Below are positions 37,418 to 59,204 of a DNA stretch of 64,000 nucleotides, piece after piece. Source of the stretch: an uncultured virus (IMG/VR IMGVR_UViG_3300009500_000012) (Duplodnaviria; Heunggongvirae; Uroviricota; Caudoviricetes); the IMG/VR virus record IMGVR_UViG_3300009500_000012. The stretch is one strand, 5' to 3'. Position numbers and translations under genes: made by a program. The notes beneath the pieces were generated by a model, which did no database searches, was not told the origin of the DNA, and saw only the letters and a list, made by a program, of their open reading frames with translations. The stretch's first letter is position 1, and each line of letters opens with the position of its first letter.

Positions 37418-37456
37418 GTGCTTACTATAAACCTATAACGAAGTTTTGTCAAAGAC

Positions 37457-37855
37457 TTACTTTCTCCGCTTGTTGTGATTTCCCCATCCCACAGTTTTCC
37501 AAGAATGAGGGAAAATTTCTTCAATGAACATAGCGACCTTAACAGGTATACCATACGAACGGTAGAGAGACTCCACTATGAGGGTTTGAAAGGTATCATG
37601 CCTTCCCCCTTCTCTTCCGTGATATACGTGGTCGATATAGTGCCCTAATTCGTGCAAGAGGGCCGCAGTATGTTCTGTCGTGGAACCATTTTTGCGGAAG
37701 TGTAGATAAATGATTTTGCTACGGGAAAAGTACCTTCCCGTATCTTTGTGGGCATCACGAAGCGAAGCAACTATGACCCGAGGAGCGGGTATGCCATAAT
37801 CTTTACAGACTATGTTTGCATATTCTTGTGCCCATGTGGTCAAAGAAATGTTCAC
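37457..37855 (-). CDS. HExxH zinc metallopeptidase-like (SprT-like)
   Basis: LLHELGHYID..H; leaderless GTG. Confidence 0.7.
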   Translation of the reverse strand: MNISLTTWAQEYANIVCKDYGIPAPRVIVASLRDAHKDTGRYFSRSKIIYLHFRKNGSTTEHTAALLHELGHYIDHVYHGREGGRHDTFQTLIVESLYRSYGIPVKVAMFIEEIFPHSWKTVGWGNHNKRRK

Positions 37856-37963
37856 TTGATAAGTATAACCTTTTTTAAGTAGTTATGTCAAAGGCTTGTT
37901 CTCTTTAATTTATTATAGAGTAAAAGAAAGAGAGGCTCCCAGGGCAAGAACCTCCTCTTCGCT

Positions 37964-38221
37964 TTACTTTTTCTTGCCTTTCTTGGGTTCCATGTTGCGT
38001 TGACCCTTGGAGGCACGGATTTGTGCCCGCGTCATCTTCTTACGCTTGCGGGGTTGCTTGTCCACGGGGAGGGCCACAGGTGCCAGGATGGACAAACCCT
38101 GTTCCTCGGCGCGTTTATGCCCTTCCAGGACCCATTCGATATTGACCGGAACGGTGTTCGGATTTTGCGAGAAGTTCTTCGCAGCGAAGGGGGCGAAGGT
38201 GGTCGTCATTTGCTGTTCCAT
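37964..38221 (-). CDS. basic hypothetical protein
   Basis: leaderless. Confidence 0.7.
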   Translation of the reverse strand: MEQQMTTTFAPFAAKNFSQNPNTVPVNIEWVLEGHKRAEEQGLSILAPVALPVDKQPRKRKKMTRAQIRASKGQRNMEPKKGKKK

Positions 38222-38230
38222 GAATTAAGT

Positions 38231-38404
38231 TTATACCTTCTCGGAAGTTTTTGCAAGCGAACCTTTGTTTTTATAGGCCGTTGTCCACTTGTGCCACTTG
38301 GTTCCAAAGTGTATCCCCATATGGTAGGAGACAACTCCACGATTTTGTTTCAACGCATGAGCATAGCAGAAACGGTAAAGGCGTTGCTTCTGAAACTCTT
38401 TCAC
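38231..38404 (-). CDS. 57 aa protein, GTG start
   Basis: TTGCTT-17-TAGAGT-6-GTG. Confidence 0.5.
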   Translation of the reverse strand: MKEFQKQRLYRFCYAHALKQNRGVVSYHMGIHFGTKWHKWTTAYKNKGSLAKTSEKV

Positions 38405-38501
38405 CTTCTTACTCTATCATAAACTGAAAGATAAAGCAAATATAGTTTTAAGATATTATAGCATTAAAGGAAGAAAAGAACCCCCGGAGGGGGTCTAGTT
38501 G

Positions 38502-38528
38502 TTAGCCGAAAAGTTTGTCAAGTTTCAT
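38502..38528 (-). CDS. 8 aa micro-ORF MKLDKLFG
   Basis: consensus promoter, TATAAT-6-ATG, terminator follows. Confidence 0.45.
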   Translation of the reverse strand: MKLDKLFG

Positions 38529-38564
38529 AACCTGATTATACCTTTTTGTTGATGTTATTGCAAA

Positions 38565-38650
38565 TGAGAGGAGTTTTCAATTAACGGGAAGAAAACTCTT
38601 AACAACTCCCGGCCTTTTCTGTGTCCCATTCGACCACGGGGGCCAACCTT
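38565..38650 (-). ncRNA. putative small RNA
   Basis: promoter 38657-38685, no start codon at TSS, hairpins. Confidence 0.45.
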
Positions 38651-38665
38651 AATTTAAGTATAAAA

Positions 38666-38845
38666 CTATTTGGTAGTTTTGTCAAACTTCCAGGTTGGCA
38701 TGACTTCTTCGCGAGCCTGTTCTAGGCACAGGATGCACGTATATTCGTCCGCAACGATGCGAACCGTATCCCGAGGGCGAAAGTCTGTTACCTTCGCACC
38801 ACAACGAATTGATTCTGTTTTCTTGTCGAAAAGGTGGTTTAGCAT
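38666..38845 (-). CDS. hypothetical protein
   Basis: coupled to upstream stop; C..CILC. Confidence 0.55.
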   Translation of the reverse strand: MLNHLFDKKTESIRCGAKVTDFRPRDTVRIVADEYTCILCLEQAREEVMPTWKFDKTTK

Positions 38846-39114
38846 GAAAGTGCGAGAAGCCTTTCTTTCCAATCCGAGGAAAGTTTATCCCCTTCTGCTT
38901 TTTCTTGAAGAAGTTCGTACAGTTCGGGATAGGTAACATAATCCCGAGTATCACCTTCATCGGAGCAGAGAACCTCTACTGATTCACCTGCAACCGAATG
39001 AATCATGGGATTCGGTCCCATAAGAATTGAAACTTCCTTCCCATTCTCGAAAGAGATTACCGCATGACGTACACCACGCGAGGTCAAGAAGTGTGGTTTG
39101 ATTTCAACTCTCAT
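38839..39114 (-). CDS. early hypothetical protein
   Basis: leaderless. Confidence 0.75.
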   Translation of the reverse strand: MRVEIKPHFLTSRGVRHAVISFENGKEVSILMGPNPMIHSVAGESVEVLCSDEGDTRDYVTYPELYELLQEKAEGDKLSSDWKERLLALSC

Positions 39115-39200
39115 GCACTAATTATATCTTAAATTGAAAGATAATGCAAGAAGAAAAGAAGAAGCCTTGGGATGCTTGATTCCAAGGCTTTTCTAATATG

Positions 39201-39464
39201 TTATCCGTTATATTCGGAGAAACAACGCCCCTCGTCTAGTGCGACTTGATAGCGTTCGATGGATTCGATACAACTTTCTAATTGTAGACGCGCCATCAGT
39301 AGGTCGCGATGAATCCCGCGATTATAGGATTTTTCGATGTTGACTTTATCAATAGTATCACAGGAATCATATCGCGCATGATACTCTTGAAGTTTGTTCT
39401 TCATCGCTTCTAATGAAGTGATTACATCAGAAGTGTTAAAGTTAGAAACCTTCGATTTAGCCAA
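39201..39464 (-). CDS. hypothetical protein (leadered)
   Basis: AAGGAG + TTG start. Confidence 0.65.
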   Translation of the reverse strand: MAKSKVSNFNTSDVITSLEAMKNKLQEYHARYDSCDTIDKVNIEKSYNRGIHRDLLMARLQLESCIESIERYQVALDEGRCFSEYNG

Positions 39465-39584
39465 AATTTTCTCCTTAGAAGAGTAAGCCCTAGAAGGGCA
39501 AAATTAGTTTTTACAAACCAAAACATATCAAATTACCAAAGTTATGTCAAATGTAGGTTGTTCTATATATAATAGTGTTGAAAA

Positions 39585-39811
39585 TAAGAAGAAGGAGAGG
39601 TTAATTACTCCTCTCCTACTTTCCGCAAGGCGTCCCTTACTTGCCCGTTTTACATTCAGGTGGTGCCATACCTACACCATTCCGACAGGTGTTGTGGTTC
39701 TAAGTTTTTTAGTCCCTGGAAGTCAAACCCTAGACTTAAAAGCCTCCAGCGGGATTGTTTCCGTATCATCGCTTTTGTATCACGGTAAGGACGAACAATC
39801 AATTTCCTTAC
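39585..39811 (-). ncRNA. putative structured ncRNA (~225 nt) with 5' pseudoknot
   Basis: promoter 39818-39846; GTAAGGA/TCCTTAC stem from +1; loop GATTGTT pairs AACAATC; 3' terminator. Confidence 0.65.
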
Positions 39812-39911
39812 AACCAAAGTATATCAAAGCATTGAAGTTATGTCAAATGGAGTTTTATTCTATGTATAATATACTTGAAAAGAGGAAGGGGAACCGGAGT
39901 TCCCCATTCTT

Positions 39912-40196
39912 CTACTTAATCCCGAGGCGGCGTTTGATTTCCGCTTTAACGAGGCGGGCTTGTTCGCCCTTGTAGGTGGTGGCGTTGGAGAGGAAATACA
40001 TTCCAATGGACCGACCGGAGTCCGCACCATAGGCATCCTCGAATGAGGCCATATCGGACATGGCCTCTAAGTAGGGAACCGCACCGAAGTAGATTTTGGG
40101 CTTCCAGGACTTGCGAACGATATACGCAAGTTCGTTGACCGTCTTGCTTTTGAGTTCTTCCGCCGAAACGACGTTGTTGTTGTTGCTGATTTCCAT
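39912..40196 (-). CDS. phage hypothetical protein
   Basis: leaderless; YFGAVPYLEAM..YFLSNA. Confidence 0.8.
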   Translation of the reverse strand: MEISNNNNVVSAEELKSKTVNELAYIVRKSWKPKIYFGAVPYLEAMSDMASFEDAYGADSGRSIGMYFLSNATTYKGEQARLVKAEIKRRLGIK

Positions 40197-40482
40197 AAAC
40201 CTATTATACCTTTCGATAGAAGTTATTGCAAGAAAAAGAGCCTATCAGATTTCCGATAGACTCTCCAGACTTAATCCTCTGTTTCGATTTCAAACATATC
40301 ATTTCCTAGATAACGCACAGGCGTATCCGAAATGATATTGGCGACAATTTCCAAACCTTTTCCAGACGCCTCTCTAAGGGTTTCGGTTAATTGATTCAAA
40401 AGGTCTTGAAAAGAAATAACTTCTTTTGCCATGTTTATATCATTCTCTCTTTCTTGAAGAATCCCTTTAGACTTGTGAAAAT

Positions 40483-40740
40483 TTAATAATCTTCCGCTCG
40501 CCGCGCATCGGTTTCGTCTTGGTTGACGCCACTTGCAATAGTTCGACCAGAATCTTCGTCGTTGAACGTATCGACTTCGGTTCCATCCGGTAATTCGATA
40601 TATTCACGAACGAGGCATTCATCATCAACGTCAACATCGACTGTTTCGATATTACTCACGTTGAGGGTAGAAGGAAAGAAGTCGCAGGAGGAGCGCACTT
40701 CGGTGCCACCATCCCATACCGAAACGTATGTTGCTTTCAT
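40483..40740 (-). CDS. hypothetical protein
   Basis: GGAG RBS, MKATYVSVWDGG. Confidence 0.65.
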   Translation of the reverse strand: MKATYVSVWDGGTEVRSSCDFFPSTLNVSNIETVDVDVDDECLVREYIELPDGTEVDTFNDEDSGRTIASGVNQDETDARRAEDY

Positions 40741-40744
40741 GTTT

Positions 40745-40945
40745 TTATTCTCCGAATCTATCGGGAACGATTTCCCACTTGCCGACTTTGTTTCCGTTGC
40801 TATCCAAGATATTCTCTTGGTCCCCGACGTATTGAGTGCTTTCATCGGAGGAATAACCCCGGAAAGAATTGGCGATAGCCGTCTTGACTTCACCGAAGGT
40901 TTGCATCGCATCGTTGTCGAGATTGATTTCGAGCGTCATCTTCAT
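40745..40945 (-). CDS. phage hypothetical protein
   Basis: leaderless; ILDSNGNKVG. Confidence 0.75.
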   Translation of the reverse strand: MKMTLEINLDNDAMQTFGEVKTAIANSFRGYSSDESTQYVGDQENILDSNGNKVGKWEIVPDRFGE

Positions 40946-40982
40946 GCTTTAAGTTTAACAACTTTCGGCAGTTATTGCAAAC

Positions 40983-41213
40983 CTAATGAACAATAGGAAA
41001 ATGAATCGCCGGAACCCACGTTAATACCCACAGAACAAGCCAACAGGGGTAAACGAATGGGCAGAAAATACCGAATATCGCGGCGACGTACCAAGGAGCC
41101 CAAACTCCAAAAACCCAGAAGAGAATAAACTCTGCCAGGAGACAAGAAACGAGGTATATCACCGAAAGGAATAATAATTGTATACCATAGAAAAACTTAA
41201 TAAATTCATCCAT
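40983..41213 (-). CDS. small membrane protein
   Basis: leaderless; hydrophobic. Confidence 0.7.
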   Translation of the reverse strand: MDEFIKFFYGIQLLFLSVIYLVSCLLAEFILFWVFGVWAPWYVAAIFGIFCPFVYPCWLVLWVLTWVPAIHFPIVH

Positions 41214-41328
41214 ACTGTTATTCTACAACTTTGGGGAGGATTCTGCAAGGGTTCTGATTATTATAGTTTAATAAAAAGAAAGGCAGGCTTTTTCTCCTTA
41301 GCCTGTCTCTCTTTTTTTGAGGAGGGTT

Positions 41329-41646
41329 TCAGTATTGAATCCGAACAGCCCCGCCGATGGTCAACTCTTTCCCTTGAACCGGATTCATCGCTTCCCGAAC
41401 GAGGGAGAGGAGTTCCGGGAAGGAAGCGACCTTGGCCCCGTATTGGGTGTTAAGCATCCAAGTGCCGGGATGGCTTTTGGTCACGTTGTATAGTGCCAAA
41501 GCACTTTGTTTGTGAAGGGCGATGATTGCGTCATCTGATTGGAGGATGAAGTCGATATCCTCTTCTTTCGAGGGATAGATGACGAAGTTTCGCACCTTGC
41601 GGGCACCAGGGAGTTTGAAGTCAACGCTTGGAATGATGTTCTTCAT
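41329..41646 (-). CDS. early hypothetical protein
   Basis: leaderless. Confidence 0.75.
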   Translation of the reverse strand: MKNIIPSVDFKLPGARKVRNFVIYPSKEEDIDFILQSDDAIIALHKQSALALYNVTKSHPGTWMLNTQYGAKVASFPELLSLVREAMNPVQGKELTIGGAVRIQY

Positions 41647-41681
41647 GTCCTAAGTATAAACTAATAACGAAGATTTGTCAA

Positions 41682-41906
41682 CTAATAGTCTTCTTCTTCG
41701 TCCTCGTTATCCTCCTCTAGGTTTACGTCGTCCATAACATCTTCGGTCGAATAGCCCAAGACGTAAGCCTCTGGAAGAATTTCTTTCCCATTCCAAACTT
41801 CTACCTTATCAGAAATAAGGTGATTGAAGTAAAGGTGTTTAACATCTACTACTACTTCATCGGGAACGCTAACATTGACCCAGGTGACAAAGGTTAAAGT
41901 TTTCAT
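41682..41906 (-). CDS. acidic-tail hypothetical protein
   Basis: TATGAT-6-ATG 41906. Confidence 0.7.
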   Translation of the reverse strand: MKTLTFVTWVNVSVPDEVVVDVKHLYFNHLISDKVEVWNGKEILPEAYVLGYSTEDVMDDVNLEEDNEDEEEDY

Positions 41907-42011
41907 GTGCTTATCATACACCTTTCAGAAAGTTATTGCAAATAGGGTTATTCAATTTATTATACACCAAAAGAGAGAAGAGAGAGCCGGAGCCCTCTAC
42001 TTCAATCTTCC

Positions 42012-42434
42012 TTACACTTCCTTGACTTTGTACCCGAAGTTATTGAACACCTTAAGCACGTTCTCGGCGGTGCCGAGTCCGGGATTGCTATAATCACGTT
42101 GGCGGTTGTAAAGGGTTTGAGCCATAACGAGACTGATTTTGTTACGCGAAACCGTGAAGATGTAACCTTCGGTTTCGACAGCCTTCTTCGTTTCGGTCAA
42201 ACCCATGCTGGTCAATTCGCGAAGGAATTTGATAGCCCCGATTTTATCGTAATCCCCATAAGGGCCGATAATGATAAACTTCAACGAAAGCGGGTCTTGC
42301 TTGCCTTCGATACGCAATTCGAGCAAACCCCGAAGGGCCATGTCGGTCACAATCGAAACGAAGGAGGTGCCATCCACCTTGTTATGGGGGATGAGGATTT
42401 CTTGGTCGCCTTGCTTCAAAACAATGTTCATCAT
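42012..42434 (-). CDS. ribosomal protein L7/L12 C-terminal-like domain protein
   Basis: KIGAIKFLRELTSMGLTETKKAVE. Confidence 0.75.
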   Translation of the reverse strand: MMNIVLKQGDQEILIPHNKVDGTSFVSIVTDMALRGLLELRIEGKQDPLSLKFIIIGPYGDYDKIGAIKFLRELTSMGLTETKKAVETEGYIFTVSRNKISLVMAQTLYNRQRDYSNPGLGTAENVLKVFNNFGYKVKEV

Positions 42435-42479
42435 GTTTTTATTCTACCTTTTTCTTGAAGTTATTGCAAGAAAGAATTA

Positions 42480-42665
42480 TTAGGGAACGTAGAAAACAGG
42501 TGAACCATAATCAGGATTGTATTCCTGAACAGTTTTCCATTCGATGAGATTTTGTTCTTCCAAAGCCCGAATGGCTTGAAGTGCAGCAACGCGAGTCACA
42601 CCCGGCAAGAAATGAATGACCGCCCCAACTTGCCGAGGTTCTTTGTTCTCATTGTTATTGTTCAT
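42480..42665 (-). CDS. early hypothetical protein
   Basis: leaderless. Confidence 0.7.
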   Translation of the reverse strand: MNNNNENKEPRQVGAVIHFLPGVTRVAALQAIRALEEQNLIEWKTVQEYNPDYGSPVFYVP

Positions 42666-42753
42666 ACTTCTATTATCAACCTTTAGGGTAGTTTTGTCAA
42701 AAATTATTCAATTTATTATAGCATAAGAAAAGAAAGAGGGCCAAAGCCCCCTT

Positions 42754-42957
42754 TTAGTCCGGGTCGTACTCTTCCCCAGGCGCTTCGTCGTGCATATAGC
42801 GCATGACTTCAACATCTTCGACCTCCGCGAATTTGATTCGAGGAGTCTGCTTATATGCGGCGTCCCGAATCTCATCAATATCGGGGTTCGCATTATCCAG
42901 ATTAACTTGATATTTGCGAACCTCCGTAACAGTTTCTGTTAGAACGAACAGGGGCAT
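42754..42957 (-). CDS. hypothetical protein
   Basis: GGAGG RBS. Confidence 0.6.
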   Translation of the reverse strand: MPLFVLTETVTEVRKYQVNLDNANPDIDEIRDAAYKQTPRIKFAEVEDVEVMRYMHDEAPGEEYDPD

Positions 42958-43139
42958 CCGTAGTCCTCCTCTTCTTCCCATTCTTCATAGTCGATATTCT
43001 CGTCAAAGAAGTCCTCTTCTTCGACAAATTCGCCATTCGCTTCGGAAGCGAGGCAGTTTTCCTCGAAACGGATGGCATCCCCGAAGGGCATCGAGTCGTA
43101 GGGGTCGTAAGATTCGTAACCGCTGTAATCTTCATCCAT
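42939..43139 (-). CDS. highly acidic small protein
   Basis: leaderless; D/E-rich. Confidence 0.7.
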   Translation of the reverse strand: MDEDYSGYESYDPYDSMPFGDAIRFEENCLASEANGEFVEEEDFFDENIDYEEWEEEEDYGCPCSF

Positions 43140-43161
43140 AAACTAATTATAGACCTTCTCT

Positions 43162-43344
43162 TTAGTTACTGCAAGCGGAGAGAGGATACCAACGGCCACC
43201 ATCTTTCCCTCCGCTTGCATGATAGCGAGGCAACTGCGGGACGCAGAAGATTTCCCCTTCCCGCTTCTTGGTAACGTAGCAAGGAACGTCTTTCAAGCGA
43301 CCACGACGAGGTGTAGCGGCCTGAAGAAGGTTGGCATCTTTCAA
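43162..43344 (-). CDS. hypothetical protein
   Basis: TTGA overlap. Confidence 0.45.
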   Translation of the reverse strand: MKDANLLQAATPRRGRLKDVPCYVTKKREGEIFCVPQLPRYHASGGKDGGRWYPLSACSN

Positions 43345-43592
43345 CTAATCCACACCTTGTAGGCATCGGCAAGGTCGTAAAGATAGTCGAGCGAATCATT
43401 AAAGTCATCTACCGACCCATTTACAGATGACTTGTAAAAATCGTTTGATAAGTCCGTAGTGTCAAGAACATTGAAAGGTGAATTTACTCGAAGCCTTTCC
43501 ATGATTTGATTTGCAGCGGCCTTGACTGAATCTTCATCTTCAGAAGTGTCAAGAAGGTCTTTGATTTGGAATTGAGACAGCCATTTACCCAT
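43341..43592 (-). CDS. hypothetical protein
   Basis: GGAG RBS; LYDLAD..VWI. Confidence 0.65.
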   Translation of the reverse strand: MGKWLSQFQIKDLLDTSEDEDSVKAAANQIMERLRVNSPFNVLDTTDLSNDFYKSSVNGSVDDFNDSLDYLYDLADAYKVWIS

Positions 43593-43593
43593 A

Positions 43594-43770
43594 TTATTTC
43601 TCCAGCAAAGCGACAAGGAACCCATGTTGATAGATGAAGGGTAAATTATCGAAGAGAGCCTTCTGGTTCTTCGTTGCCAGGGAGAGAGCAAACTCCTTCG
43701 CCTTGTTATAGGCGCTCAACTCCACAAAGGAGGAGGTCAAAAGTTCTTTCGCTTCATCTTTCGTCATCAT
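43594..43770 (-). CDS. 58 aa leaderless protein
   Basis: TATACT-6-ATG. Confidence 0.65.
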   Translation of the reverse strand: MMTKDEAKELLTSSFVELSAYNKAKEFALSLATKNQKALFDNLPFIYQHGFLVALLEK

Positions 43771-43796
43771 GCTCTAAGTATAAACTTATTGCGGAG

Positions 43797-44012
43797 TTAT
43801 GTCAAAGGAAGCGGAATTGTAGACTCGAACCAAACTTCTTTGTCGTAATCATTATACGTGATTTTAACATGGCTGTATTCTACGGCATGGCGATGAATAA
43901 GATTTTTCGCAAGATTCAATGCGCCTTGCTTTGAGTCCCGAGTCCAGAATTGGACTTGTGCGGGATATTCACGTAGGGTTGCAATGATGACAAATGGTTC
44001 GGTATACTTCAT
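43797..44012 (-). CDS. early hypothetical protein
   Basis: leaderless; ends LT-stop. Confidence 0.7.
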   Translation of the reverse strand: MKYTEPFVIIATLREYPAQVQFWTRDSKQGALNLAKNLIHRHAVEYSHVKITYNDYDKEVWFESTIPLPLT

Positions 44013-44027
44013 GCTATGAATATAAAC

Positions 44028-44297
44028 CTATTCAGGAGTTTTGTCCAACAATGGGAGGAAAGAAACGATATTCTTTCTTAATTTATCATAAACAACTCGA
44101 ACAGTCTGACCCTGCCATTCGAGCGTATGAATAGTGACCCGATTTGATTGGGTCACAACATTTTGACTTCGACCGGACATAATATGACGCTTTAATTCTA
44201 TCATATTTTGATGGTTGAAGTCAATTCCGTAACGCTCCAATGCCCTCCGCTTGGCATGTTTACGTTGGCACTTCCCTTTGCTAACTCGCTTTCCCAT
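44028..44297 (-). CDS. hypothetical protein
   Basis: HAKRRALERYG motif. Confidence 0.65.
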   Translation of the reverse strand: MGKRVSKGKCQRKHAKRRALERYGIDFNHQNMIELKRHIMSGRSQNVVTQSNRVTIHTLEWQGQTVRVVYDKLRKNIVSFLPLLDKTPE

Positions 44298-44319
44298 TAT
44301 TGTTGTTCCCTTAAATAAT

Positions 44320-44407
44320 TGGTGGGGAAGGTGGGACTCGAACCCACATGAGATTTCTCCCGTCGCGTTTTAAGCGCGATGCTTCTGACCAATTTAGCCA
44401 CTTCCCC
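44320..44407 (-). tRNA. trnL: tRNA-Leu(UAA), CCA encoded
   Basis: GGGGAAG/CTTCCCC acceptor, TCGCG-CTTAAAA-CGCGA anticodon arm, long variable arm, GTGGG-TTCGAGT-CCCAC, ACCA. Confidence 0.93.
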
Positions 44408-44819
44408 GAATAGATGGATGACTATAATATCCTCCGCATTTTCGAGAACAATAATTTTCTTTTGTTACTTTATTTTTTTGTCTGTCTTGGCGCTCACGTT
44501 GACTAACTTCTGCTTGAAACTCTTTTCCGCAAGGGCAAGTATATGTTTTATATTTTCTTTGCCTTCCGTGGTCAACCCAAACGGATTTTCTTCTATTTTC
44601 TATTCCGCTCAAAACTTGCAAGTTCGACAGTTCATTGTTTCTTATGTTTCCATCCTTGTGGTCAACTTCTTCCCAATCCTCAAGTTTCCTTCCTAATGCT
44701 TCTTCCATGAGGTAACGAGGATAAGAAATAGTTATCAGGGATTTATCGTCTAATTGCTTGACAATTCTGCTTCTGCCGTCCTTGGCAGTATATGGTCCGT
44801 ATATCTTCATGGCTAACAA
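44394..44819 (-). CDS. HNH homing endonuclease
   Basis: EVDHKDGNIRNNELSNL; CPCG..YCSRKC. Confidence 0.85.
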   Translation of the reverse strand: MLAMKIYGPYTAKDGRSRIVKQLDDKSLITISYPRYLMEEALGRKLEDWEEVDHKDGNIRNNELSNLQVLSGIENRRKSVWVDHGRQRKYKTYTCPCGKEFQAEVSQRERQDRQKNKVTKENYCSRKCGGYYSHPSIRGSG

Positions 44820-44847
44820 CCTCTTTGTTAACCATTATATTAAAAAG

Positions 44848-45090
44848 TTATTTGGTTCGACCAGCAATAGCCTCTACATAATTTTCAAGGCAACGACGAG
44901 TATGATATTCTGGATTTTTGTTATTAAATTGACTGTAGTAATTCAACAGCCCTTGCTTTTGACTGTCACCTGGTTTAACTGTAACAGTAAACTCGTTAAA
45001 CACAAATGAAACCGGATTGCCTAGCCGGTTTGCAAACTCGCGAGCATATTCAACTGCTCCGTTAATATGATGAATGCTGTTTATTGACAT
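44848..45090 (-). CDS. early hypothetical protein
   Basis: leaderless. Confidence 0.7.
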   Translation of the reverse strand: MSINSIHHINGAVEYAREFANRLGNPVSFVFNEFTVTVKPGDSQKQGLLNYYSQFNNKNPEYHTRRCLENYVEAIAGRTK

Positions 45091-45133
45091 ACTCCTATTC
45101 TATCAACTTTCTTTAGTTATTGCAAAAAAATGA

Positions 45134-45364
45134 CTAAAGAGGACCAGAACCTAAAAAGTAGTCCTCTTCCTCTTCTTCATCTTCTTCTACGGCGAAGGTG
45201 GCACTCAGTCCTGGATGACTTGTGCTAATAGTGTTATAGCGTTCTTCGGTAAGCCGAACCTCGCGTTCATAGATAGCAGAAGCGATGCGCGCAAGGCTAC
45301 GTCCGTCGCTATGTTCGATACGTTGCACCAAGTCACGAATGAGGTCCTCGCGTTCAATCTTCAT
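45134..45364 (-). CDS. early hypothetical protein
   Basis: leaderless. Confidence 0.7.
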   Translation of the reverse strand: MKIEREDLIRDLVQRIEHSDGRSLARIASAIYEREVRLTEERYNTISTSHPGLSATFAVEEDEEEEEDYFLGSGPL

Positions 45365-45449
45365 GACCTTATTTTATCAACTAATTGGAGTTCTTGCAAC
45401 TCATACTATTTATTATATAACTAAAAGAAAAAAGGAGGACGAACCTCCT

Positions 45450-45746
45450 TTAGACAGGGAATCGAGGAAGAGGTTTTTCGGTTTGAGGGCTTGCTTTGAG
45501 AAACTCTACGTGCCCCTTTAGGTCCTCTGCTGCCTTCAAGTAATCACCACGCTTATACTTGCGGCCGGTGTATTCTGAAGCCATCTTGAGCATTTGAACA
45601 GGTCCAACGCCTCGGGTCGGAATCATCTTCAACTTTGCATAGCCGATGAGACTTTGTGCCAGGATAGCGGCCCGGAAAATATCCACATCCCCTTTGGCAA
45701 GGACTCGGCCGTTGTGGGTGCGTTCGGCAAATGATTGATTATCCAT
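45450..45746 (-). CDS. early hypothetical protein
   Basis: leaderless. Confidence 0.75.
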   Translation of the reverse strand: MDNQSFAERTHNGRVLAKGDVDIFRAAILAQSLIGYAKLKMIPTRGVGPVQMLKMASEYTGRKYKRGDYLKAAEDLKGHVEFLKASPQTEKPLPRFPV

Positions 45747-45855
45747 GACTTTATATTATCAACTTTAAGAAGATATTGCAAGTCATTTTATTATTTATTA
45801 TATCATTATTCCACAACGAGGACCGGCGCTAGGCTCGGCCCTCCTTGGGATAACG

Positions 45856-46014
45856 CGCTAGGTCCCGGATTTGAACCGGAAACGCCACCTATTTGCTTAG
45901 GTCCGAACCTAGATGAAGTAAGAGGATGCTCGCACAACTTTTATATGCTGCCGGTCAAGAGAGTCTTATCTCTCACGCTTTGTTTAGGCGGTCCTACTTG
46001 TCCACCTACCTAGA
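45856..46014 (-). ncRNA. tRNA-like RNA with ~90 nt domain replacing the anticodon loop
   Basis: CTAGGT/ACCTAG acceptor, TCCGG-TTCAAAT-CCGGG T arm, CCGCCTA/TAGGTGG stem, own promoter, no CCA. Confidence 0.6.
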
Positions 46015-46075
46015 ACCTTAGTTTGTCACTCTGTGATTAGATTATATCTTCTTGAAGAAGTTTTGTCAAAACCCT

Positions 46076-46264
46076 TTAGTTAGAAGGGTCAACAGATTGG
46101 AGTCTAAAGGACCGTGCGGCTTCACGCATTTCGGCAAGCATATTCTCTGCTTCACGATAGTCGCTAGGTCCTGGCGCATCCTTTGTATGGTCGCCAAGGA
46201 TAACTTCAAGGGCAGCAATACGGTTCGGCGTGACCTTTACTGTTGCTTGGTTAGAAGTATCCAT
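46076..46264 (-). CDS. hypothetical protein
   Basis: follows 46270-46689. Confidence 0.55.
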   Translation of the reverse strand: MDTSNQATVKVTPNRIAALEVILGDHTKDAPGPSDYREAENMLAEMREAARSFRLQSVDPSN

Positions 46265-55562: not shown

Positions 55563-55909
55563 GCTTCCATCGGTTTACCATTGCCAATGGTTTGAGGAAG
55601 TTTCATGCTTTCTTTGTAGCAATCCTTACAGTATGGTTGCCCGAATTGGGGAGGATTCGGATGCGCTTTACAATGCATAGGCATTTTTGCTTCAAATGCA
55701 CAAGAGAGAATGAACCATTTATCAGGATTCCCATTCTCACTCATCATACATTTTTCGGGACTCAGAGTTAGTTGAAGGTGATAGCCAACTTTATATAGTT
55801 CGGCCTTCGTCTCTTCATACTTCTGAGGGGAAACAATAAGAGCATCTACCCAATACTCATTGTTCATTCCGCCCCACTTCTTTTTAACTAATTGAATGTC
55901 CATACTCAA
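55526..55909 (-). CDS. early hypothetical protein (start likely 55903)
   Basis: promoter upstream. Confidence 0.65.
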   Translation of the reverse strand: MSMDIQLVKKKWGGMNNEYWVDALIVSPQKYEETKAELYKVGYHLQLTLSPEKCMMSENGNPDKWFILSCAFEAKMPMHCKAHPNPPQFGQPYCKDCYKESMKLPQTIGNGKPMEAWLKAWKECPWS

Positions 55910-56064
55910 ATTATAGCATTCATTTTTAGTTTAATCAAATGAATGGGGTATGATACCGACCGCTGAAAGGTCCTTATTATGGAGAACCGTAGTCTTTTCA
56001 GGGTATGCTTCCCATGCTGCCTTGAATGCTACATAGGCCCACAGAAATCTGCGAATTATATCGG

Positions 56065-56358
56065 TCATTTGCCGACGTTATCGCCAAAGAGTTTCTTGAG
56101 GGTTTCGATAGGACCGAAGGCGCTGAAATAATTATCTTTGTATGAGCCCTTGTAATCCCATACACCACAACGCACTCCGTCAACTGTAAAGCCCCAGGAG
56201 TATTTAACTTTGTAGGGGTCATCCTTGCAATTAGCAGGGAAACCAATAATACTTTTGATTTGTGAGGCACTCAAACCTTTAATGGTATATTGAGCGTGGT
56301 CCCCGGCTTCATCTACAGGGAGGACGACAGGTTTTTTATCATCGGTATTATTATTCAT
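56065..56358 (-). CDS. early hypothetical protein
   Basis: TATAAT-6-ATG 56358; DPYKV..W..WDYK. Confidence 0.75.
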   Translation of the reverse strand: MNNNTDDKKPVVLPVDEAGDHAQYTIKGLSASQIKSIIGFPANCKDDPYKVKYSWGFTVDGVRCGVWDYKGSYKDNYFSAFGPIETLKKLFGDNVGK

Positions 56359-56439
56359 GTACCCATTATATCTTTTAGTGAGAGTTTTTGCAAATTCTTC
56401 CAAAGATTTTGATATATGTTCCATTTATTATAGCCTTTA

Positions 56440-56557
56440 TGGTGGAAATAGAAGGATTCGAACCTTCATATAGTTGACACAAGTATCGCGAATACCTGGT
56501 GAGAAGAGACTAGTATTCTCTGTCAACCTGTTTTAATACCACTTAAACTATATTTCC
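56440..56557 (-). ncRNA. tRNA-like RNA (118 nt, CCA encoded) with branched two-hairpin domain instead of an anticodon loop
   Basis: GGAAATA/TATTTCC, D arm GTTT..AAAC, GGTTGACA/TGTCAACT, GAAGG-TTCGAAT-CCTTC, ACCA. Confidence 0.85.
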
Positions 56558-56906
56558 CATAAAGAGGGCATCATGTCCTTTCCCCTCAGTCTTGCATTGA
56601 AATACAACCCGGTAAGATTGCCCTCGCGTTTCTTGCGGTCATGGGGCGTCTTATCTTAGTAGCAAGTCTTAAAAATTTGGGGCAATCCGGTAACGCCAAG
56701 AGGTTGCAACCCCTTTTTGCTTCCCATACGTAGCACATACGATTCGGGTTCCTCACAAGCCGCATTGCCATGCCTTGTGAGTCCTGCCTGCCCTGGTTTG
56801 TCCGAGAGCCGTAAGAATTCTTGAATGGACAGGAATCATTCAAGTTGAGTTACGCAGAGGACCAGGATGTAAGGACTTCCGTTTCATGAACCGGCTAGAA
56901 CCTTAC
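56558..56906 (-). ncRNA. putative large structured ncRNA (~350 nt)
   Basis: promoter 56913-56941; stems GTAAGG/CCTTAC, CTTGAATG/CATTCAAG, CTCACAAG/CTTGTGAG, GATTGCCC/GGGCAATC. Confidence 0.65.
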
Positions 56907-56944
56907 AAACTCATTATACTATTTGAATTTAGTTTTGTCAATTT

Positions 56945-57119
56945 AGATAATCGCCTCGGTGGAGGTTAGGCTCCTCCAATATCCCTTAACTCTCGCCATG
57001 TTTTTCCTTGCGGAACCCATCTGCTTCAAACGAGCGCAGGCTGATAGACTTCGGTTGTCTATCTTAGGGCCTCTTTATTTTATTATCCGATACTACCGAA
57101 TTTATTCCGGCGACCATCT
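56945..57119 (-). ncRNA. putative 175-nt ncRNA closed by 11-bp terminal stem
   Basis: promoter 57126-57154; AGATGGTCGCC/GGCGATTATCT; internal hairpins. Confidence 0.7.
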
Positions 57120-57213
57120 AAAACTATTATGCCATTTTCATTTAGTTTTGTCAAGTACGGTTCCAACAGTAGGCGTGGAGAAAAAGTAGACGCCTAGTTT
57201 TACTATGATACGC

Positions 57214-57396
57214 TAGGGCATACAGGGCTCGAACCTATATTTCCCGATGTTCCCCCAAGCACAAACCGCCAAGTCTGAGCCACCTAATCATTCTCTTGCT
57301 TACTTTTTCGTAGTTGGCGCTAGGAATTTCAGCATGGATTGATTCAGATTCAAGGGGTACTAGTCAAGGCGTTTTGTCCATTTAAACGAATGCCCC
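57214..57396 (-). ncRNA. tRNA-like RNA (183 nt) with ~100 nt insertion in anticodon arm
   Basis: GGGGCAT/ATGCCCT, D arm GTTT-AAATGGACA-AAAC, ATAGG-TTCGAGC-CCTGT. Confidence 0.75.
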
Positions 57397-57631
57397 ATTC
57401 CCGTATCACGCCCATTGGACTGATTACTACACCTTCTGTAGTTTGATTTGAGAAGGTTTTCCTACTTCTCACCGGGTCGAGACATGTCCCGGAGGCTAGT
57501 TGTAGCGTCCCATTTAAGGGATACCAATGAACTCGAAGCACCGTGGGAGTATCTCATTGGCTGTCAGCAACGTCGTCTTGGGTGCTACCTGCTTCTCGGT
57601 TATTTTGTGACCAAGCGTTTCCGCTCACCAC
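57397..57631 (-). ncRNA. putative multi-hairpin ncRNA (~235 nt)
   Basis: promoter 57638-57666; GAGCG-GAAA-CGCTT, CCAATGA/TCATTGG, CCGGG/CCCGG, TGAGAAG/CTTCTCA, ACTACA/TGTAGT. Confidence 0.6.
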
Positions 57632-57752
57632 ATTTATATCTTATACTATTTGGAGAGTTTTGTCAAATCCTTTTTGTTTAATTCAAAAAAGAATCTCCTG
57701 CCATGACGCCATGAAACTTTATGACTCTTGCAGGAGCAATAATTGAAACGCT

Positions 57753-58037
57753 TCAAACTGTCCCCTTCTCAACTGCATAAATATACGCAGCAGAATCTTT
57801 ACGACTTGAAGTAGGAGAAGAATCTGAATACAACTCTTTATAATCCGCAGGACGCCCAGCAGCAAGGTTCTCTGCTCGTCTACGCTTGATTAAGGCTTTC
57901 TGTCTAGCAATAGCCTCCGCATCTTCAGGACCCAACAGAGCGGCAAGGAAGCCATCTACAATGCCATTTGCAGCATCTTCTTCAATGGTAGTCTCTCGCT
58001 TTGGTTGAAGGTCTACTTCGATATATTTCATTTTCAA
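57753..58037 (-). CDS. early hypothetical protein
   Basis: promoter at 58042-58070; terminator downstream. Confidence 0.65.
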   Translation of the reverse strand: MKMKYIEVDLQPKRETTIEEDAANGIVDGFLAALLGPEDAEAIARQKALIKRRRAENLAAGRPADYKELYSDSSPTSSRKDSAAYIYAVEKGTV

Positions 58038-58232
58038 AAGTAGTGTATCAATCTCTTACAGTTATTGCAAACAACAACAACAACAACATTCTATTTATTA
58101 TATACAGCAGAACAGGAAACCAAGCGTATACTCTTGGCTCCCTATCTGTGTAGTAGTCCTCATGGAGTGAGCGACTTGCATTTAGTATACCAAAGAGGAG
58201 CAGTTTTGTCAAGAACTGCCCCTCCCTGTATT

Positions 58233-59204
58233 CTAGACCTCTACGAGGTACTTGAGGACTTCATCCTTCAAGGGTTCATCAAAGGTGCGGATATACTTGC
58301 GTTCGAGCGCACCGTTCGGGTTGTCCTTGGTTTGGTTAGTAGCCCGGTCATGGTCGAGGTAATCAACCGTGGCATTCCAGAGGCCGTAGGCGGTATCACG
58401 CACGTTCGCGATATCGGCAGCATTGAGCGCCTTATTGAACAGGTTACGACCCTTTTCAATTTCGGTTTCCTTGCGCTTACCAATCGACATTTCGGGAAGA
58501 GGAAGGAGGATTTGGTCACGAACGAATTCGATTTCCTTCGTGGTGACAGGCTTCTTGAGAAGGCCATTCATCACATCTTCAAACTTCGTGAAGTAATCTC
58601 CCGAGATTTTCAGAACGTCACGGGCCGCAAGAACCAGAGTGTTGGTATCCATTTGGTTCCCGATATGCTTGACACGGAAGGTATTCTTTGCACCTTGCAA
58701 GGCAGCAGTAAGGGTATTTTGGCAAACCACCCGAACCGGAGTAATCACGCAGATAAAGGAACCTTTGCCGTCGTGATGATTCAGAAGCAGGATGTAACGA
58801 GAGATTTCATCCCCGGCAATTTTAGTGATGTTAGGAAGGCGCATCAGAATCCATACGCGCTGCCCATTATCGAACGTGCCCGCCGTTTCAAAGAGGGACT
58901 CGTTCTGGATGCCCGTAATCGCCTCTGCGAGATTAAAGGCTTCTTCATTCTGAAGAGGTTTGTAGCGTTTCGTAACCGTACCGAGGATACGCTTCTCATC
59001 CATACGCACGACATTGAATGCGCCGTGATTCGGGATGAATTCTTCGCCGACTTTGGCATAAGAAGGATGGAGTTCTACAGTCCAATCAAGGCCACCAAGA
59101 ACGCGGGCTTGAAGGGCGTTTAAGTCATGGTCGGGCACAACGCCAAGACCATGCCACGGGGTTTCACGAACGGAGACGATGGAAGTGATATTTCCAGCCG
59201 ACAT
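58233..59204 (-). CDS. DUF932/DUF945 phage/plasmid-like protein
   Basis: PWHGLG, YKPLQNEEAF, ETAG, NHHDGKGS, VRVVCQNTL, AYGLWNA. Confidence 0.85.
   Translation of the reverse strand: MSAGNITSIVSVRETPWHGLGVVPDHDLNALQARVLGGLDWTVELHPSYAKVGEEFIPNHGAFNVVRMDEKRILGTVTKRYKPLQNEEAFNLAEAITGIQNESLFETAGTFDNGQRVWILMRLPNITKIAGDEISRYILLLNHHDGKGSFICVITPVRVVCQNTLTAALQGAKNTFRVKHIGNQMDTNTLVLAARDVLKISGDYFTKFEDVMNGLLKKPVTTKEIEFVRDQILLPLPEMSIGKRKETEIEKGRNLFNKALNAADIANVRDTAYGLWNATVDYLDHDRATNQTKDNPNGALERKYIRTFDEPLKDEVLKYLVEV

Follow-up and report, generated by a model that had tools for sequence, protein, structure and literature searches.

The minus strand of an uncultured phage carries, between 56425 and 57752, an island that we tentatively read as the non-protein-coding front of an early operon. 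The best explanation for the island as a whole (probability about 0.4) is that it yields stable, non-decoding tRNA-shaped RNAs, and that the tRNA-processing enzymes which excise them punctuate the early transcript as well. We analysed a window of 64,000 nt, taken from a 130-kb record with 35.6% G+C and an estimated completeness of 78%. The features discussed below are collected in Table 1.

Table 1. Features of the island and its surroundings, in order of transcription.
Feature	Position	Strand	Description
Fourth promoter, same class, upstream of island	58184..58212	(-)	11/12
Promoter P_A	57638..57666	(-)	TTGACAAAACT, 17-nt spacer, TAAGAT; 10/12
Unit A leader, ~235 nt, upstream of element #2	57397..57631	(-)	may hold leaderless GTG frame 57631-57554
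tRNA-like #2	57214..57396	(-)	acceptor GGGGCAT/ATGCCCT, 7 bp, G1.U72; discriminator A; CCA not encoded
Insert of #2, 109 nt, at 37/38	57249..57357	(-)	anticodon-like loop CTAGTA|A at 5' edge
Trailer past element #2	57160..57213	(-)	hairpin AGGCGT..ACGCCT (inverted repeat), no U-tract terminator
Promoter P_B	57126..57154	(-)	TTGACAAAACT, 17-nt spacer, CATAAT and upstream TG; 11/12
Unit B RNA, ~178 nt	56942..57119	(-)	11-bp closing stem 57119-57109 / 56955-56945 (inverted repeat)
Promoter P_C	56913..56941	(-)	TTGACAAAACT, 17-nt spacer, TATAAT; 12/12
Unit C leader, ~349 nt, upstream of element #1	56558..56906	(-)	holds 85-aa ORF 56586-56843
tRNA-like #1 with encoded CCA	56440..56557	(-)	acceptor GGAAATA/TATTTCC, D arm, T arm GAAGG-TTCGAAT-CCTTC
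Insert of #1, 40 nt	56484..56523	(-)	ARAGORN boundaries
119-aa gene	56065..56424	(-)	start 16 nt past CCA of element #1

Promoters and coding potential of the island

A sigma-70 scan of the island gave three tandem promoters with scores of 10 to 12 out of 12. All three contain the exact 11-mer TTGACAAAACT and conform to the phage's own promoter motif, TTGACA[A/T]AACT, which bears out the three promoters claimed in an earlier, sequence-only reading of this DNA. Allowing up to one mismatch, TTGACAAAACT occurs at 20 sites in the window, every one of them on the minus strand (3.7 expected; maximum of 9 in 100 shuffles). The fourth promoter of this class, upstream of the island, leads into a ~120-nt leader that is followed by a second promoter of the TTGCAATAACT type and a 94-aa gene. 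Our sequence scan found no terminator within the island, so transcripts are expected to continue into the 119-aa gene, and since the sigma-70 scan placed no strong promoter-like site between element #1 and the ATG of that gene, the island promoters most likely express it. The 119-aa protein has five relatives in IMG/VR (47-69% identity), with no island upstream in any of the five and no DNA similarity. Among the neighbouring proteins, the 94-aa product and a DUF932 protein have no relatives in IMG/VR; the latter has two matches in metagenome_contigs, both distant and partial, and a protein atlas offered no usable function for two of these neighbours.

Of 21 such promoters in the entire 130-kb record, 11 are followed by an ATG or GTG 35-36 bases past the start of TTGACA, and these starts open ORFs of 58-299 codons, so that the 11 promoters look leaderless. 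The island promoters had been described as having no usable start codon at +1. This is partly borne out: P_C has no start codon at that offset, P_A has a GTG at the canonical offset of 35 that opens 25 codons (57631-57554), and P_B an ATG at offset 37 that opens 17 codons (57117-57064). The broader description of the island as coding-free is supported within the tests we ran. Neither the five ORFs nor 16 stop-to-stop frames matched a Pfam or PHROG family (best PHROG E = 0.16), the 85-aa ORF had no homologue in a large protein collection, and the codon score was negative in all 180-nt windows starting at 56300-57620 except one at +0.05. Pseudogene remnants were rejected on the lack of any PHROG in the 16 stop-to-stop frames.

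Two tRNA-like elements with enlarged anticodon arms

The island contains two genuine tRNA-like elements. ARAGORN in intron mode made two intron calls in 130 kb, one on each element, and no call of any kind in ten dinucleotide shuffles; in its default mode it called neither. T-arm motifs are found at 10 sites in the phage, where 0.12 are expected. Both elements keep acceptor, D and T arms together with U8, A14, G18G19, A21, A15-U48 and a TTCGA-type T-loop. A 7-bp acceptor, a G18G19 D arm, a TTCRANY T-loop and the core tertiary bases are present in #1 (Rfam) and in #2 (ARAGORN, T-arm scan and reading of the sequence), but in neither element is a 5-bp anticodon stem closed by a 7-nt loop placed at the usual distance from this core.

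Element #1 (56443-56557, minus strand) matches the Rfam tRNA family RF00005 with 44.9 bits against a cut-off of 29, and the alignment leaves 47 nt where a 7-nt anticodon loop is expected. ARAGORN identifies it as tRNA-Thr(UGU) interrupted by 40 nt. The insert and the loop CTTGTGT are predicted to form an 8-bp stalk (GGTTGACA/TGTCAACT) that bears two hairpins, one of 5 bp with a 7-nt loop (AGAGA-ATACTAG-TCTCT) and one of 8 bp; in an alignment with tRNA-Ser(GCU), the first of these falls on the anticodon arm. The fold of #1 has a z-score of -2.18. Phage tRNA-Ser(GCU) has 8 + 24 bases in common with #1, acceptor and T arm being identical, and a 21-mer spanning the T arm and acceptor of #1 was found at 10 loci in IMG/VR, all of them ordinary tRNA-Ser(GCU) genes.

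Element #2 has no match in Rfam and is called by ARAGORN solely when introns are allowed, as tRNA-Thr(AGU) with a 109-nt insert at 37/38; ~116 nt thus stand where a 7-nt anticodon loop is expected. Its GG-containing D arm reads GTTT-AAATGGACA-AAAC and its T arm ATAGG-TTCGAGC-CCTGT. The insert is predicted to fold into a stalk (CCCC/GGGG) with two hairpins. Forcing #2 into a cloverleaf costs no more than 1 kcal/mol relative to the minimum free energy, and the element folds no better than its shuffles (z = +0.27).

When the inserts are excised, both elements are left with a 7-nt loop (CTTGTGT in #1, CTAGTAA in #2) that has U33 and, at position 37, a purine. The label of anticodon-less mimics was not borne out: both are remodelled tRNA genes with a 7-base anticodon-like loop beside the insert, which would read UGU in #1 and AGU in #2 upon excision. 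In the predicted folds, the anticodon arm of each is rebuilt as a longer stalk ending in two hairpins. Such a swollen anticodon arm (+40 and +109 bases) is a rare, barely described kind of phage RNA. The palindromic loop ACUAGU is common to #1 and #2.

The same phage has further tRNA-derived RNAs. The layout of an RNA followed by a tRNA-like module, which had been noted twice in the island, is indeed present there and recurs in the P46069 unit, which has a T-arm/acceptor element, and in a second ORF-free island outside the window, again with a tRNA-shaped module. Also outside the window lies a 61-nt minihelix with G3:U70 and ACCA, which follows a promoter of its own. Its local match to the Rfam tmRNA model reaches 26.5 bits (cut-off 47), and over 26 nt its T arm and 3' acceptor have the same sequence as a phage tRNA-Ala(UGC).

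Leader RNAs and searches for relatives

The RNAs of units A, B and C had been taken for large structured RNAs, a view that fold stability supports weakly and in one of the three. Unit B has a z-score of -3.06 for its minimum free energy, and none of 200 shuffles equals or betters it; unit A (z = -1.46; 16/200 shuffles equal or better) and unit C (z = -0.74; 23/100) show no stability beyond that of shuffled sequence. Internal paralogy of the large RNAs was rejected, the promoters being the sole repeats, and the 66 pairs among 12 candidate RNAs of the phage revealed no sequence paralogy (top z = 2.8). Unit A and the insert of #1 have a 13-nt complementarity, which we estimate to be at chance level.

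A suggested likeness to GOLLD and ROOL was not upheld, as neither model matched in the window at gathering score or in 55900-58300 at E up to 10, and no part of the island matched an Rfam family other than tRNA; the positive control, GOLLD in a related phage locus (L002), scored 161 bits. Also rejected, since Rfam gave nothing for them even at E up to 10, were RNase P RNA (of which a GGAAGUCC-like string is seen), tmRNA, 6S RNA, Y RNA, T-box and self-cleaving ribozymes. A blastn search of 56300-57800 against 50,697 phage records gave no match, and a 20-mer of #2 occurs at no locus in IMG/VR. A degenerate D-arm pattern common to #1 and #2 hit 2 IMG/VR loci and another 16 in genome_contigs, which are coding or chance matches, none of them tRNA-like at the match.

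RNA from the island

We compared 2,401 bases with four runs, for which the data are contigs rather than reads. Contigs from two metatranscriptomes cover 56695-57104 and 57193-57379, and the island is thus transcribed, as had been proposed. No RNA contig lies on the remaining 1,804 bases, which include the flanking genes, 56440-56694 (with #1) and 57380-57640 (unit A), although at contig level such absence is not evidence. RNA depth is ~9 over the #2 contig and 0 on the neighbouring genes. Contigs of two runs stop at 57104, within what is proposed to be the closing stem of unit B, and one of them runs into adapter; this is the sole defined RNA end seen. P_C lies inside the contig 56695-57104, which indicates that transcripts from P_B read through P_C. 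Unit C is covered over 56695-56906 only.

The contig on #2 begins 17 nt inside the 5' end of the element and extends 21 nt into the trailer past the tRNA 3' end. Across the two junctions of the 109-nt insert it follows the DNA without a break, and no joint is reported in the four runs; the insert is therefore retained in this RNA. On our assumption about library preparation, mature or spliced tRNAs of ~77 nt are probably lost from such libraries, in which case the colinear contig is compatible with splicing.

A model for the production and use of the RNAs

In the model that we favour, the three tandem phage-type sigma-70 promoters would fire into the island on the minus strand, and host tRNA-end enzymes would excise the tRNA-shaped modules from the long transcript. 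RNase P would cut 5' of the G at 57396 and at 56557; a U precedes both, giving each element U at -1 and G at +1. The 3' ends would then be trimmed, with #1 bringing its own CCA. We infer modules that persist as stable tRNA-shaped RNAs unable to decode, and the same cuts would release the leader RNAs on the upstream side and the mRNA on the downstream side. The acceptor/T half may act on a host factor, for which an anticodon-ignoring synthetase, EF-Tu, the CCA enzyme and a tRNA-directed defence nuclease are candidates. The MALAT1/mascRNA principle offers a precedent in which a tRNA-like fold within a long transcript directs RNase P and RNase Z and the tRNA-like piece can be stable; Rfam found no mascRNA-menRNA match in the island.

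Several observations favour this model. These are the tRNA anatomy (Rfam score, ARAGORN intron calls, T-arm count and the cheap cloverleaf fold of #2), the insert kept in the RNA of #2, the poor fit of both elements to decoding tRNAs (detailed below), the phage's further tRNA-derived RNAs without a normal anticodon arm, and the operon context, with no terminator in the island and no strong promoter ahead of the 119-aa gene. Against it, no homologue was found, so that no covariation or conservation stands behind any fold; #2 folds no better than shuffles; the ends of the #2 contig differ from the predicted processed ends; and #1 has no RNA contig in these contig-level data. In summary, tRNA-shaped modules that act as processing signals, as effectors or as both remain the most economical reading.

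Alternative explanations

The main rival, possible but on the unlikely side, holds that #1 and #2 are working tRNA-Thr(UGU) and tRNA-Thr(AGU) genes with non-self-splicing introns of 40 and 109 nt, removed by a protein endonuclease and the phage RNA ligase. It draws on the canonical 7-nt loops obtained upon excision and on the canonical 37/38 position of the #2 insert. Complete U33/purine-37 loops, NGU anticodons that stand for Thr and match the phage's commonest Thr codons (ACA 43%, ACT 38%), and the lack of any other tRNA-Thr found in 130 kb all fit spliced tRNAs better than non-decoding modules. The phage's other tRNAs likewise serve codons that end in A (Leu UAA, Arg UCU, Lys UUU, and one with the anticodon UAU), and the phage encodes both an RNA ligase (PF09414) and a P-loop kinase (AAA_33). 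In addition, in two phages related through the 119-aa protein, tRNA-like genes are interrupted at 37/38 by a conserved insert of 62 nt; the anticodon triplets of these genes differ (TAA and CGA), and their acceptor and T stems carry compensatory changes.

Such introns would be of the "enigmatic" kind reported in tRNA genes of Lak megaphages (Devoto et al. 2019, PMC6784885). As described there, the Lak introns, including one in a Thr(TGT) gene, are short non-group-I inserts in the anticodon loop of phage tRNA-type genes, and in ARAGORN intron mode the island elements likewise carry anticodon-loop inserts that leave a canonical loop on removal. Lak boundaries are fixed by intron-less alleles in related genomes, whereas no relative of the island was found; its inserts match no found sequence, the body of #1 is Ser-type and the sole RNA seen is unspliced.

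Further evidence speaks against splicing. A group I intron has ~200 nt or more, a P3-P9 core and a guanosine-binding site, whereas these inserts measure 40 and 109 nt, lack a group I core and match none of the Rfam intron or ribozyme families, even at E up to 10. An archaeal- or eukaryal-type intron finds no support either, since inspection revealed no bulge-helix-bulge (a pair of 3-nt bulges around a 4-bp helix) and Pfam found no splicing-endonuclease family in the 120 phage ORFs scanned. The two elements also differ in their junction geometry. Read as spliced tRNAs, both would be a poor fit to decoding: #1 would have its insert past position 31 and carry G37 and U38, which are unsuited to an ANN-decoding tRNA, on a body of Ser(GCU) rather than Thr type, and #2 would lack CCA and have A34, G1.U72 and a connector of two bases from the D stem to the anticodon stem. 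The RNA seen is unspliced, in contigs that drop short or rare forms.

It is decidedly unlikely, to our mind, that the island forms part of a battery of early tRNA-derived RNAs serving as decoys or sponges for host factors that recognise tRNA, such as synthetases, EF-Tu and defence enzymes that cleave or modify tRNAs. The acceptor/T halves would then come from anticodon-blind identity systems (Ser(GCU)-type in #1, Ala with G3:U70 in the minihelix), with the anticodon half deleted or rebuilt as a forked stalk. These RNAs could be processed, CCA-tailed and perhaps charged, and would never decode; #1 and #2 could also pair through their common palindromic loop.

We likewise consider it improbable that the island is debris, that is, tRNA genes disabled by insertions and long untranslated operon leaders, whose RNAs have no function of their own and are made by strong promoters. 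The lack of homologues anywhere, the shuffle-like folds of units A and C and element #2, the absence of paralogy among the 12 candidate RNAs and the homing-type HNH and GIY-YIG-like (T5orf172) genes in or near tRNA regions agree with such an origin. However, all tRNA core positions checked are intact in both elements, which argues for selection or a very recent origin, and three consensus-grade promoters are kept within 750 bp. Island RNA is also far commoner than RNA of the neighbouring genes, the fold of unit B beats 200 of 200 shuffles, and the same design appears again in the phage's second island.

Finally, units A and B are very unlikely to be mRNAs whose products are micro-peptides, a reading compatible with the others: the starts of the 25-codon (57631) and 17-codon (57117) frames lie near the offsets of the leaderless genes (35 and 37, against 35-36 in the phage's 11), and an 18-codon frame at 56999 sits at good Shine-Dalgarno spacing behind AAGGA, but frames of 17-25 codons have the lengths expected in random sequence, the defined RNA 5' end at 57104 lies past the ATG at 57117 and so leaves an abundant RNA without that start, the codon score is negative throughout, family matches are lacking, and P_C has no start codon at all.

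Relation to known tRNA-like RNAs and significance

The non-decoding, tRNA-shaped modules that we propose have partial counterparts elsewhere. Plant mitochondrial t-elements are non-decoding tRNA-like folds at which RNase P and RNase Z generate termini of adjacent RNAs (Forner et al. 2007, PMC1920247). Where t-elements and mascRNA are organellar or nuclear and have reduced cloverleaves, the island elements have a complete core and an enlarged anticodon arm and lie in a phage early operon, with cleavage predicted. In the "tRNA scaffold" engineered for recombinant RNA in E. coli, a structured insert replaces the anticodon stem-loop, and processing and protection of the chimera are those of a tRNA (Ponchon et al. 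2013, PMC3753655). The island elements likewise keep acceptor, T and D arms and have the anticodon arm swapped for other structure. The scaffold is a laboratory design, and a counterpart arising naturally in a phage would be new; for the island, stability and processing are predictions.

YrlA-type Y RNAs, known from bacteria and phages, have tRNA-like D, T and acceptor modules with conserved tertiary pairs, and one is cut by RNase P and receives CCA (Chen et al. 2014, PMC4201824). By the same account these RNAs end at the "anticodon" side and bind a Ro60 protein encoded next door, whereas in the island elements the acceptor stem holds the ends; the 120 ORFs scanned contain no TROVE/Ro60 family, and Rfam gave no Y RNA match. 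The domain of tmRNA offers another likeness, an acceptor/T-arm module on a long helix that replaces the anticodon arm. Unlike tmRNA, the island lacks G3:U70 (position 3:70 is A-U in #1 and G-C in #2), a tag frame and pseudoknots, and neither ARAGORN nor Rfam found a tmRNA in the window. The 61-nt minihelix outside the window is the sole piece that resembles the tmRNA domain.

Phage tRNA genes are usually explained as helpers for codon usage or as substitutes for tRNAs that host defences have cleaved, and tRNA-shaped RNAs with rebuilt anticodon arms, made from the strongest early promoters, fit neither account. The locus is small, expressed in nature and has clear predicted ends. If the inserts are introns, they would point to protein-based tRNA splicing in bacteria-infecting viruses, which is not known to have been demonstrated. 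If the elements are instead mimics, they would be natural "tRNA scaffolds" that serve as effectors and punctuate the early transcript, which would also be new.

Two tRNA cores with an enlarged anticodon arm

In the island at about 56440-57666, tRNA is the sole Rfam family recovered, and all other matches at E up to 10 lie far under the cut-off. The first tRNA-like element (element 1; see table) scores 44.9 bits against a cut-off of 29, with acceptor, D and T arms aligned and 47 nt where the 7-nt anticodon loop would stand. Default ARAGORN calls neither this element nor the second one (element 2). When introns are allowed, it reports tRNA-Thr(tgt) at c[56440-56557], interrupted by 40 nt immediately past the 5' strand of the anticodon stem, and tRNA-Thr(agt) at c[57212-57397], interrupted by 109 nt at 37/38; this mode gives six calls over the whole phage, two of them with introns, and none in ten dinucleotide shuffles. 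By direct reading, both elements have U8, A14, G18G19, A21 and an A15-U48 pair. They share a variable loop of 4 nt and a T-loop of canonical form, and in both, position -1 is U and +1 is G. The 3' end of element 1 is ACCA; in element 2 the final A precedes GCG. Scanning the phage for a strict T-arm motif (5-bp stem with G53-C61 plus a TTCRANY loop) gives 10 matches, versus 0.12 in 50 shuffles.

In the predicted fold of element 1 (z = -2.18), the anticodon stem runs on into an 8-bp stalk (GGUUGACA/UGUCAACU) capped by two hairpins, the first with a 5-bp stem and a 7-nt loop (AGAGA-AUACUAG-UCUCU) and the second with an 8-bp stem and a 3-nt loop. That of element 2 leads through a stem CUUGA/UCGGG, a loop region with some pairing and a CCCC/GGGG helix to a long hairpin and a short one; a fold constrained to the cloverleaf is 1 kcal/mol less stable, and the overall z is +0.27. 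As modelled, both elements are tRNA cores carrying a forked, lengthened anticodon arm. The palindrome ACTAGT stands on the minus strand in the 7-nt loop of element 1's first hairpin (56509) and in the anticodon-like loop of element 2 (57359), and is found only 19 times in the 130 kb, where composition alone predicts 44; the two RNAs could conceivably pair through these loops, though this is a post-hoc observation.

A 21-mer over the T arm and 3' acceptor of element 1 is found at 10 IMG/VR loci, all 10 of them ordinary tRNA-Ser(GCU). The first 8 bases and the last 24 before the discriminator are identical to tRNA-Ser(GCU), the D-loops resemble each other, and the insert's first hairpin can be aligned with the anticodon arm of the Ser tRNA; the similarity ranking against these loci is partly circular, because the same 21-mer had fetched them. 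The body of element 1 is therefore Ser-type, and its Thr label comes only from the loop beside the insert. Element 2 had no close relative in an IMG/VR scan with a 20-mer.

Features of the island, its transcripts and related loci (window positions unless a locus is named)
Feature	Location	Strand	Detail
Element 1	56443-56557	-
Element 2	57214-57396	-
P56941 (unit C)	56941-56913	-	12/12
P57154 (unit B)	57154-57126	-	11/12
P57666 (unit A)	57666-57638	-	10/12
P58212, fourth promoter	58212-58184	-	11/12
RNA contig, run X3	56695-57104		depth 9.3
RNA contig, run X3	57193-57379		depth 8.8
RNA contig, run X4	56954-57104
P46069 unit	45790-46069	-	no start codon at +1; RNA ~240 nt (about 46033-45790)
P35686 unit			no start codon at +1; ~340 nt
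P38685 unit			no start codon at +1; ~90 nt
P39846 unit			no start codon at +1; ~220 nt
RNA ligase	25448-26581	+	PF09414 with OB domain
P-loop kinase	15212-15748	-	AAA_33
AlkB-like oxygenase	22764-23420	+	2OG-Fe(II)
AlkB-like oxygenase	L020 14285-14839	-	2OG-Fe(II)
tRNA cluster	L020 3400-4278	-	Arg(UCU), Met(CAU), UAU-anticodon tRNA, two atypical tRNA-Lys(UUU)
Second ORF-free island	L020 9640-11110		~1.5 kb; window-equivalent about 73600-75070
61-nt minihelix RNA	L020 10621-10681		GGGACCG...CGGUUCC-ACCA
110-nt tRNA-like fold	L020 10872-10981
tRNA-like gene	L042 2546-2680		62-nt insert
tRNA-like gene	L043 10422-10557		62-nt insert

Promoters, coding potential and operon context

All genes surrounding the island are on the minus strand. 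The three promoters that the sequence-only reading had placed in it are real matches, and the exact 11-mer TTGACAAAACT is present in each as well as in the fourth promoter, P58212. With at most one mismatch, the motif has 20 copies in the window, every one on the minus strand, compared to 3.7 expected from 100 shuffles (highest shuffle, 9); a slightly wider motif has 21 copies over the whole record, again all minus-strand. At 11 of these 21 promoters, an ATG or GTG 35-36 bases past the TTGACA start opens 58-299 codons, and the phage therefore appears to use leaderless mRNAs. The other 10 lack a leaderless ORF; in several cases a promoter of another type (TTGCAATAAC...) comes 60-400 nt further on, together with a leaderless gene. 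The early region at 34600-46100 (minus strand) has two promoter classes, TTGACA[A/T]AACT and TTGCAATAAC, and many of its genes have an ATG 6-8 nt past the -10 hexamer, giving leaderless-looking mRNAs. A (GTT)6 repeat (AAC repeats on the plus strand) occupies 58069-58089, in the leader between P58212 and the second promoter of the neighbouring 94-aa gene.

The absence of a start codon at +1, proposed for all three island promoters, holds for P56941; P57666 has a GTG at offset 35 (25 codons) and P57154 an ATG at offset 37 (17 codons). Unit B contains an 18-codon ORF behind AAGGA (start 56999, read from sequence). Micro-ORF lengths in the island match random-sequence expectation. Five ORFs of 63-85 aa have no Pfam family and a single PHROG match (E = 0.16), sixteen stop-to-stop frames (40-87 aa) have no PHROG, and for the longest ORF (56586-56843, 85 aa) a protein collection of 5.8 billion clusters gave no homologue over the range of lengths searched. 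A codon log-odds score, for which 54 long phage ORFs served as training set, is below 0 in all 180-nt windows starting at 56300-57620, bar one at +0.05, although it is a weak measure, as the adjacent DUF932 gene is also near 0. From the Pfam, PHROG and homologue searches and the codon score, we accept the description of the island as coding-free insofar as it encodes no protein that can be recognised, subject to the caveat of the micro-ORFs.

The island had also been described as large structured RNAs. In fold stability, unit B (z = -3.06; 0 of 200 shuffles fold as well) and the RNA-supported 410 nt (z = -2.45; 1 of 100) stand out, and unit A (z = -1.46; 16 of 200) and unit C (z = -0.74; 23 of 100) do not. 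Apart from the promoters and the two T arms, the island has no internal repeats, and 12 candidate phage RNAs, compared in 66 pairs, are no more alike than expected by chance (highest z = 2.8). Because neither a terminator within the island nor a strong promoter-like site between element 1 and the 119-aa gene, which starts 16 nt further on, was found, the island is at the least the leader of the 119-aa operon.

RNA from the island

Parts of the island are present in six public runs, including two metatranscriptomes, and the runs containing it carry the label moss metagenome. We compared four runs as contigs, not raw reads, across 55900-58300. The DNA runs X1 and X2 cover 30 and 29 of 30 bins. 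Contigs from both metatranscriptomes, X3 and X4, lie inside the island, which is thus transcribed, and none falls on the other 1,804 of 2,401 bases, flanking genes included. Since the flanking genes, which serve as control, are silent in the RNA runs, uniform DNA carry-over is unlikely.

The longer X3 contig spans unit B, its downstream promoter P56941 and the initial 210 nt of unit C, which means that transcription continues past that promoter. X3 and X4 contigs both stop at 57104, where the X3 contig runs into Illumina read-1 adapter; coincident contig ends count as a weak hint only. Given the usual stranded library, 57104 would mark a 5' end of an RNA from the minus strand. This position is 15 nt past the expected start and within the closing stem proposed for unit B, so that the ATG at 57117 is upstream of it; it may be a processing site. 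The stretch around 57104 is AU-rich and single-stranded.

The other X3 contig is colinear with the DNA over the entire 109-nt insert of element 2 and both junctions, with no joint reported; it begins at G18 and runs 21 nt beyond the 3' end. This shows that unspliced element 2 with a trailer exists as RNA. The contig ends are not those of a processed element 2, and the contig is compatible with a short spliced product too, which such libraries and contigs would probably miss. The start at G18 is directly 3' of the U at position 17; dihydrouridine at this position of real tRNAs can hinder reverse transcription.

The phage and its RNA-related genes

The record to which the window belongs comprises 130,281 bp (completeness estimate 78%, CheckV; subtracting 46,638 from a record position gives the window position) at 35.6% G+C and encodes a tail sheath, a Mu-type portal and an intein-bearing large terminase. 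The terminase gene (4328-6679, minus strand) is split by an intein-like Hint domain with weak Hom_end_hint and Intein_splicing matches. The RNA ligase, AAA_33 kinase and two AlkB-like oxygenases are an RNA repair or RNA-joining tool kit; the closest cultured match of the ligase is in a Tunturiibacter (Acidobacteriota) jumbo phage (47.7% identity). In the tRNA cluster on L020, a locus of the same record, the two atypical tRNA-Lys(UUU) are not called by ARAGORN, and the ORF between them has HNH-like CxxC and histidine motifs, read by eye, and matched no Pfam family (E up to 1e-4). Directly adjoining tRNA-Leu(UAA) is a gene assigned to Pfam HNH_3 (44394-44816). A GOLLD RNA is present in L002, a locus of a phage related through the 119-aa protein (6469-6857, plus strand; 161 bits against a cut-off of 150), and none in the window.

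Possible scaffolds or intron-bearing tRNA genes

We read elements 1 and 2 as tRNA mimics or scaffolds, with a probability of about 0.4. The main rival, only somewhat less probable, is that they are intron-bearing tRNA-Thr genes whose inserts are removed by protein-dependent splicing. After the predicted excision, both loops have canonical length with U33 and a purine at 37, and both read NGU; the main Thr codons of the phage are ACA (43%) and ACT (38%), no other tRNA-Thr was found in it, its remaining tRNAs read A-ending codons, and it encodes an RNA ligase and kinase. However, element 1 has G37/U38 on a Ser-type body, and element 2 has A34, a two-base connector, G1.U72 and no CCA. The junction geometries are unlike each other: in element 1 the loop is located 3' of the insert, to which it is fully base-paired, and in element 2 it is located 5' of the insert. 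No endonuclease family was found among 120 ORFs scanned, and the RNA seen is unspliced only.

Inserts of this kind have parallels. In L042 and L043, phages related through the 119-aa protein, tRNA-like genes in large tRNA arrays carry a conserved 62-nt forked insert at 37/38, which favours the intron reading. The two genes differ in anticodon triplet (TAA versus CGA), with compensatory changes in the acceptor and T stems, and their D- and T-loops are atypical (T-loop 8 nt); they have no Rfam match, and an IMG/VR search yields these two only. Lak phage tRNAs with unexplained introns, one of them Thr(TGT), point the same way (Devoto et al. 2019, PMC6784885). Beyond that report, keyword searches of a limited collection found no paper on phage protein-dependent tRNA splicing or on phage tRNA-like RNAs with enlarged anticodon arms. 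A bulge-helix-bulge intron fits neither junction, and both inserts are far too short for a group I intron.

The nearest functional analogues found are plant mitochondrial t-elements (PMC1920247), an engineered tRNA scaffold (PMC3753655) and the YrlA Y RNAs (PMC4201824). The anatomy is real, the island is expressed and the element is an orphan; the mechanism could be that of either of two unusual readings.

Further tRNA-derived RNAs in the phage

The P46069 RNA carries a T arm (TCCGG-TTCAAAT-CCGGG) and an acceptor-like stem (CTAGGT/ACCTAG). It has TAAGGTTCTAG in common with the start of unit C. The P39846 unit ends in a terminator near 39590 and has a possible 52-codon TTG ORF. The second ORF-free island, beyond the window, has four strong promoters on both strands. 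Its 61-nt minihelix, with G3:U70, gives a local Rfam tmRNA match (26.5 bits; cut-off 47), and over 26 nt of T arm and acceptor it is identical to a phage tRNA-Ala(UGC); its 110-nt tRNA-like fold lies within a 330-nt unit ending in a terminator. The phage thus carries several tRNA-derived RNAs with the anticodon half missing or rebuilt, and it is mainly for this reason that the mimic or scaffold reading is ranked first.
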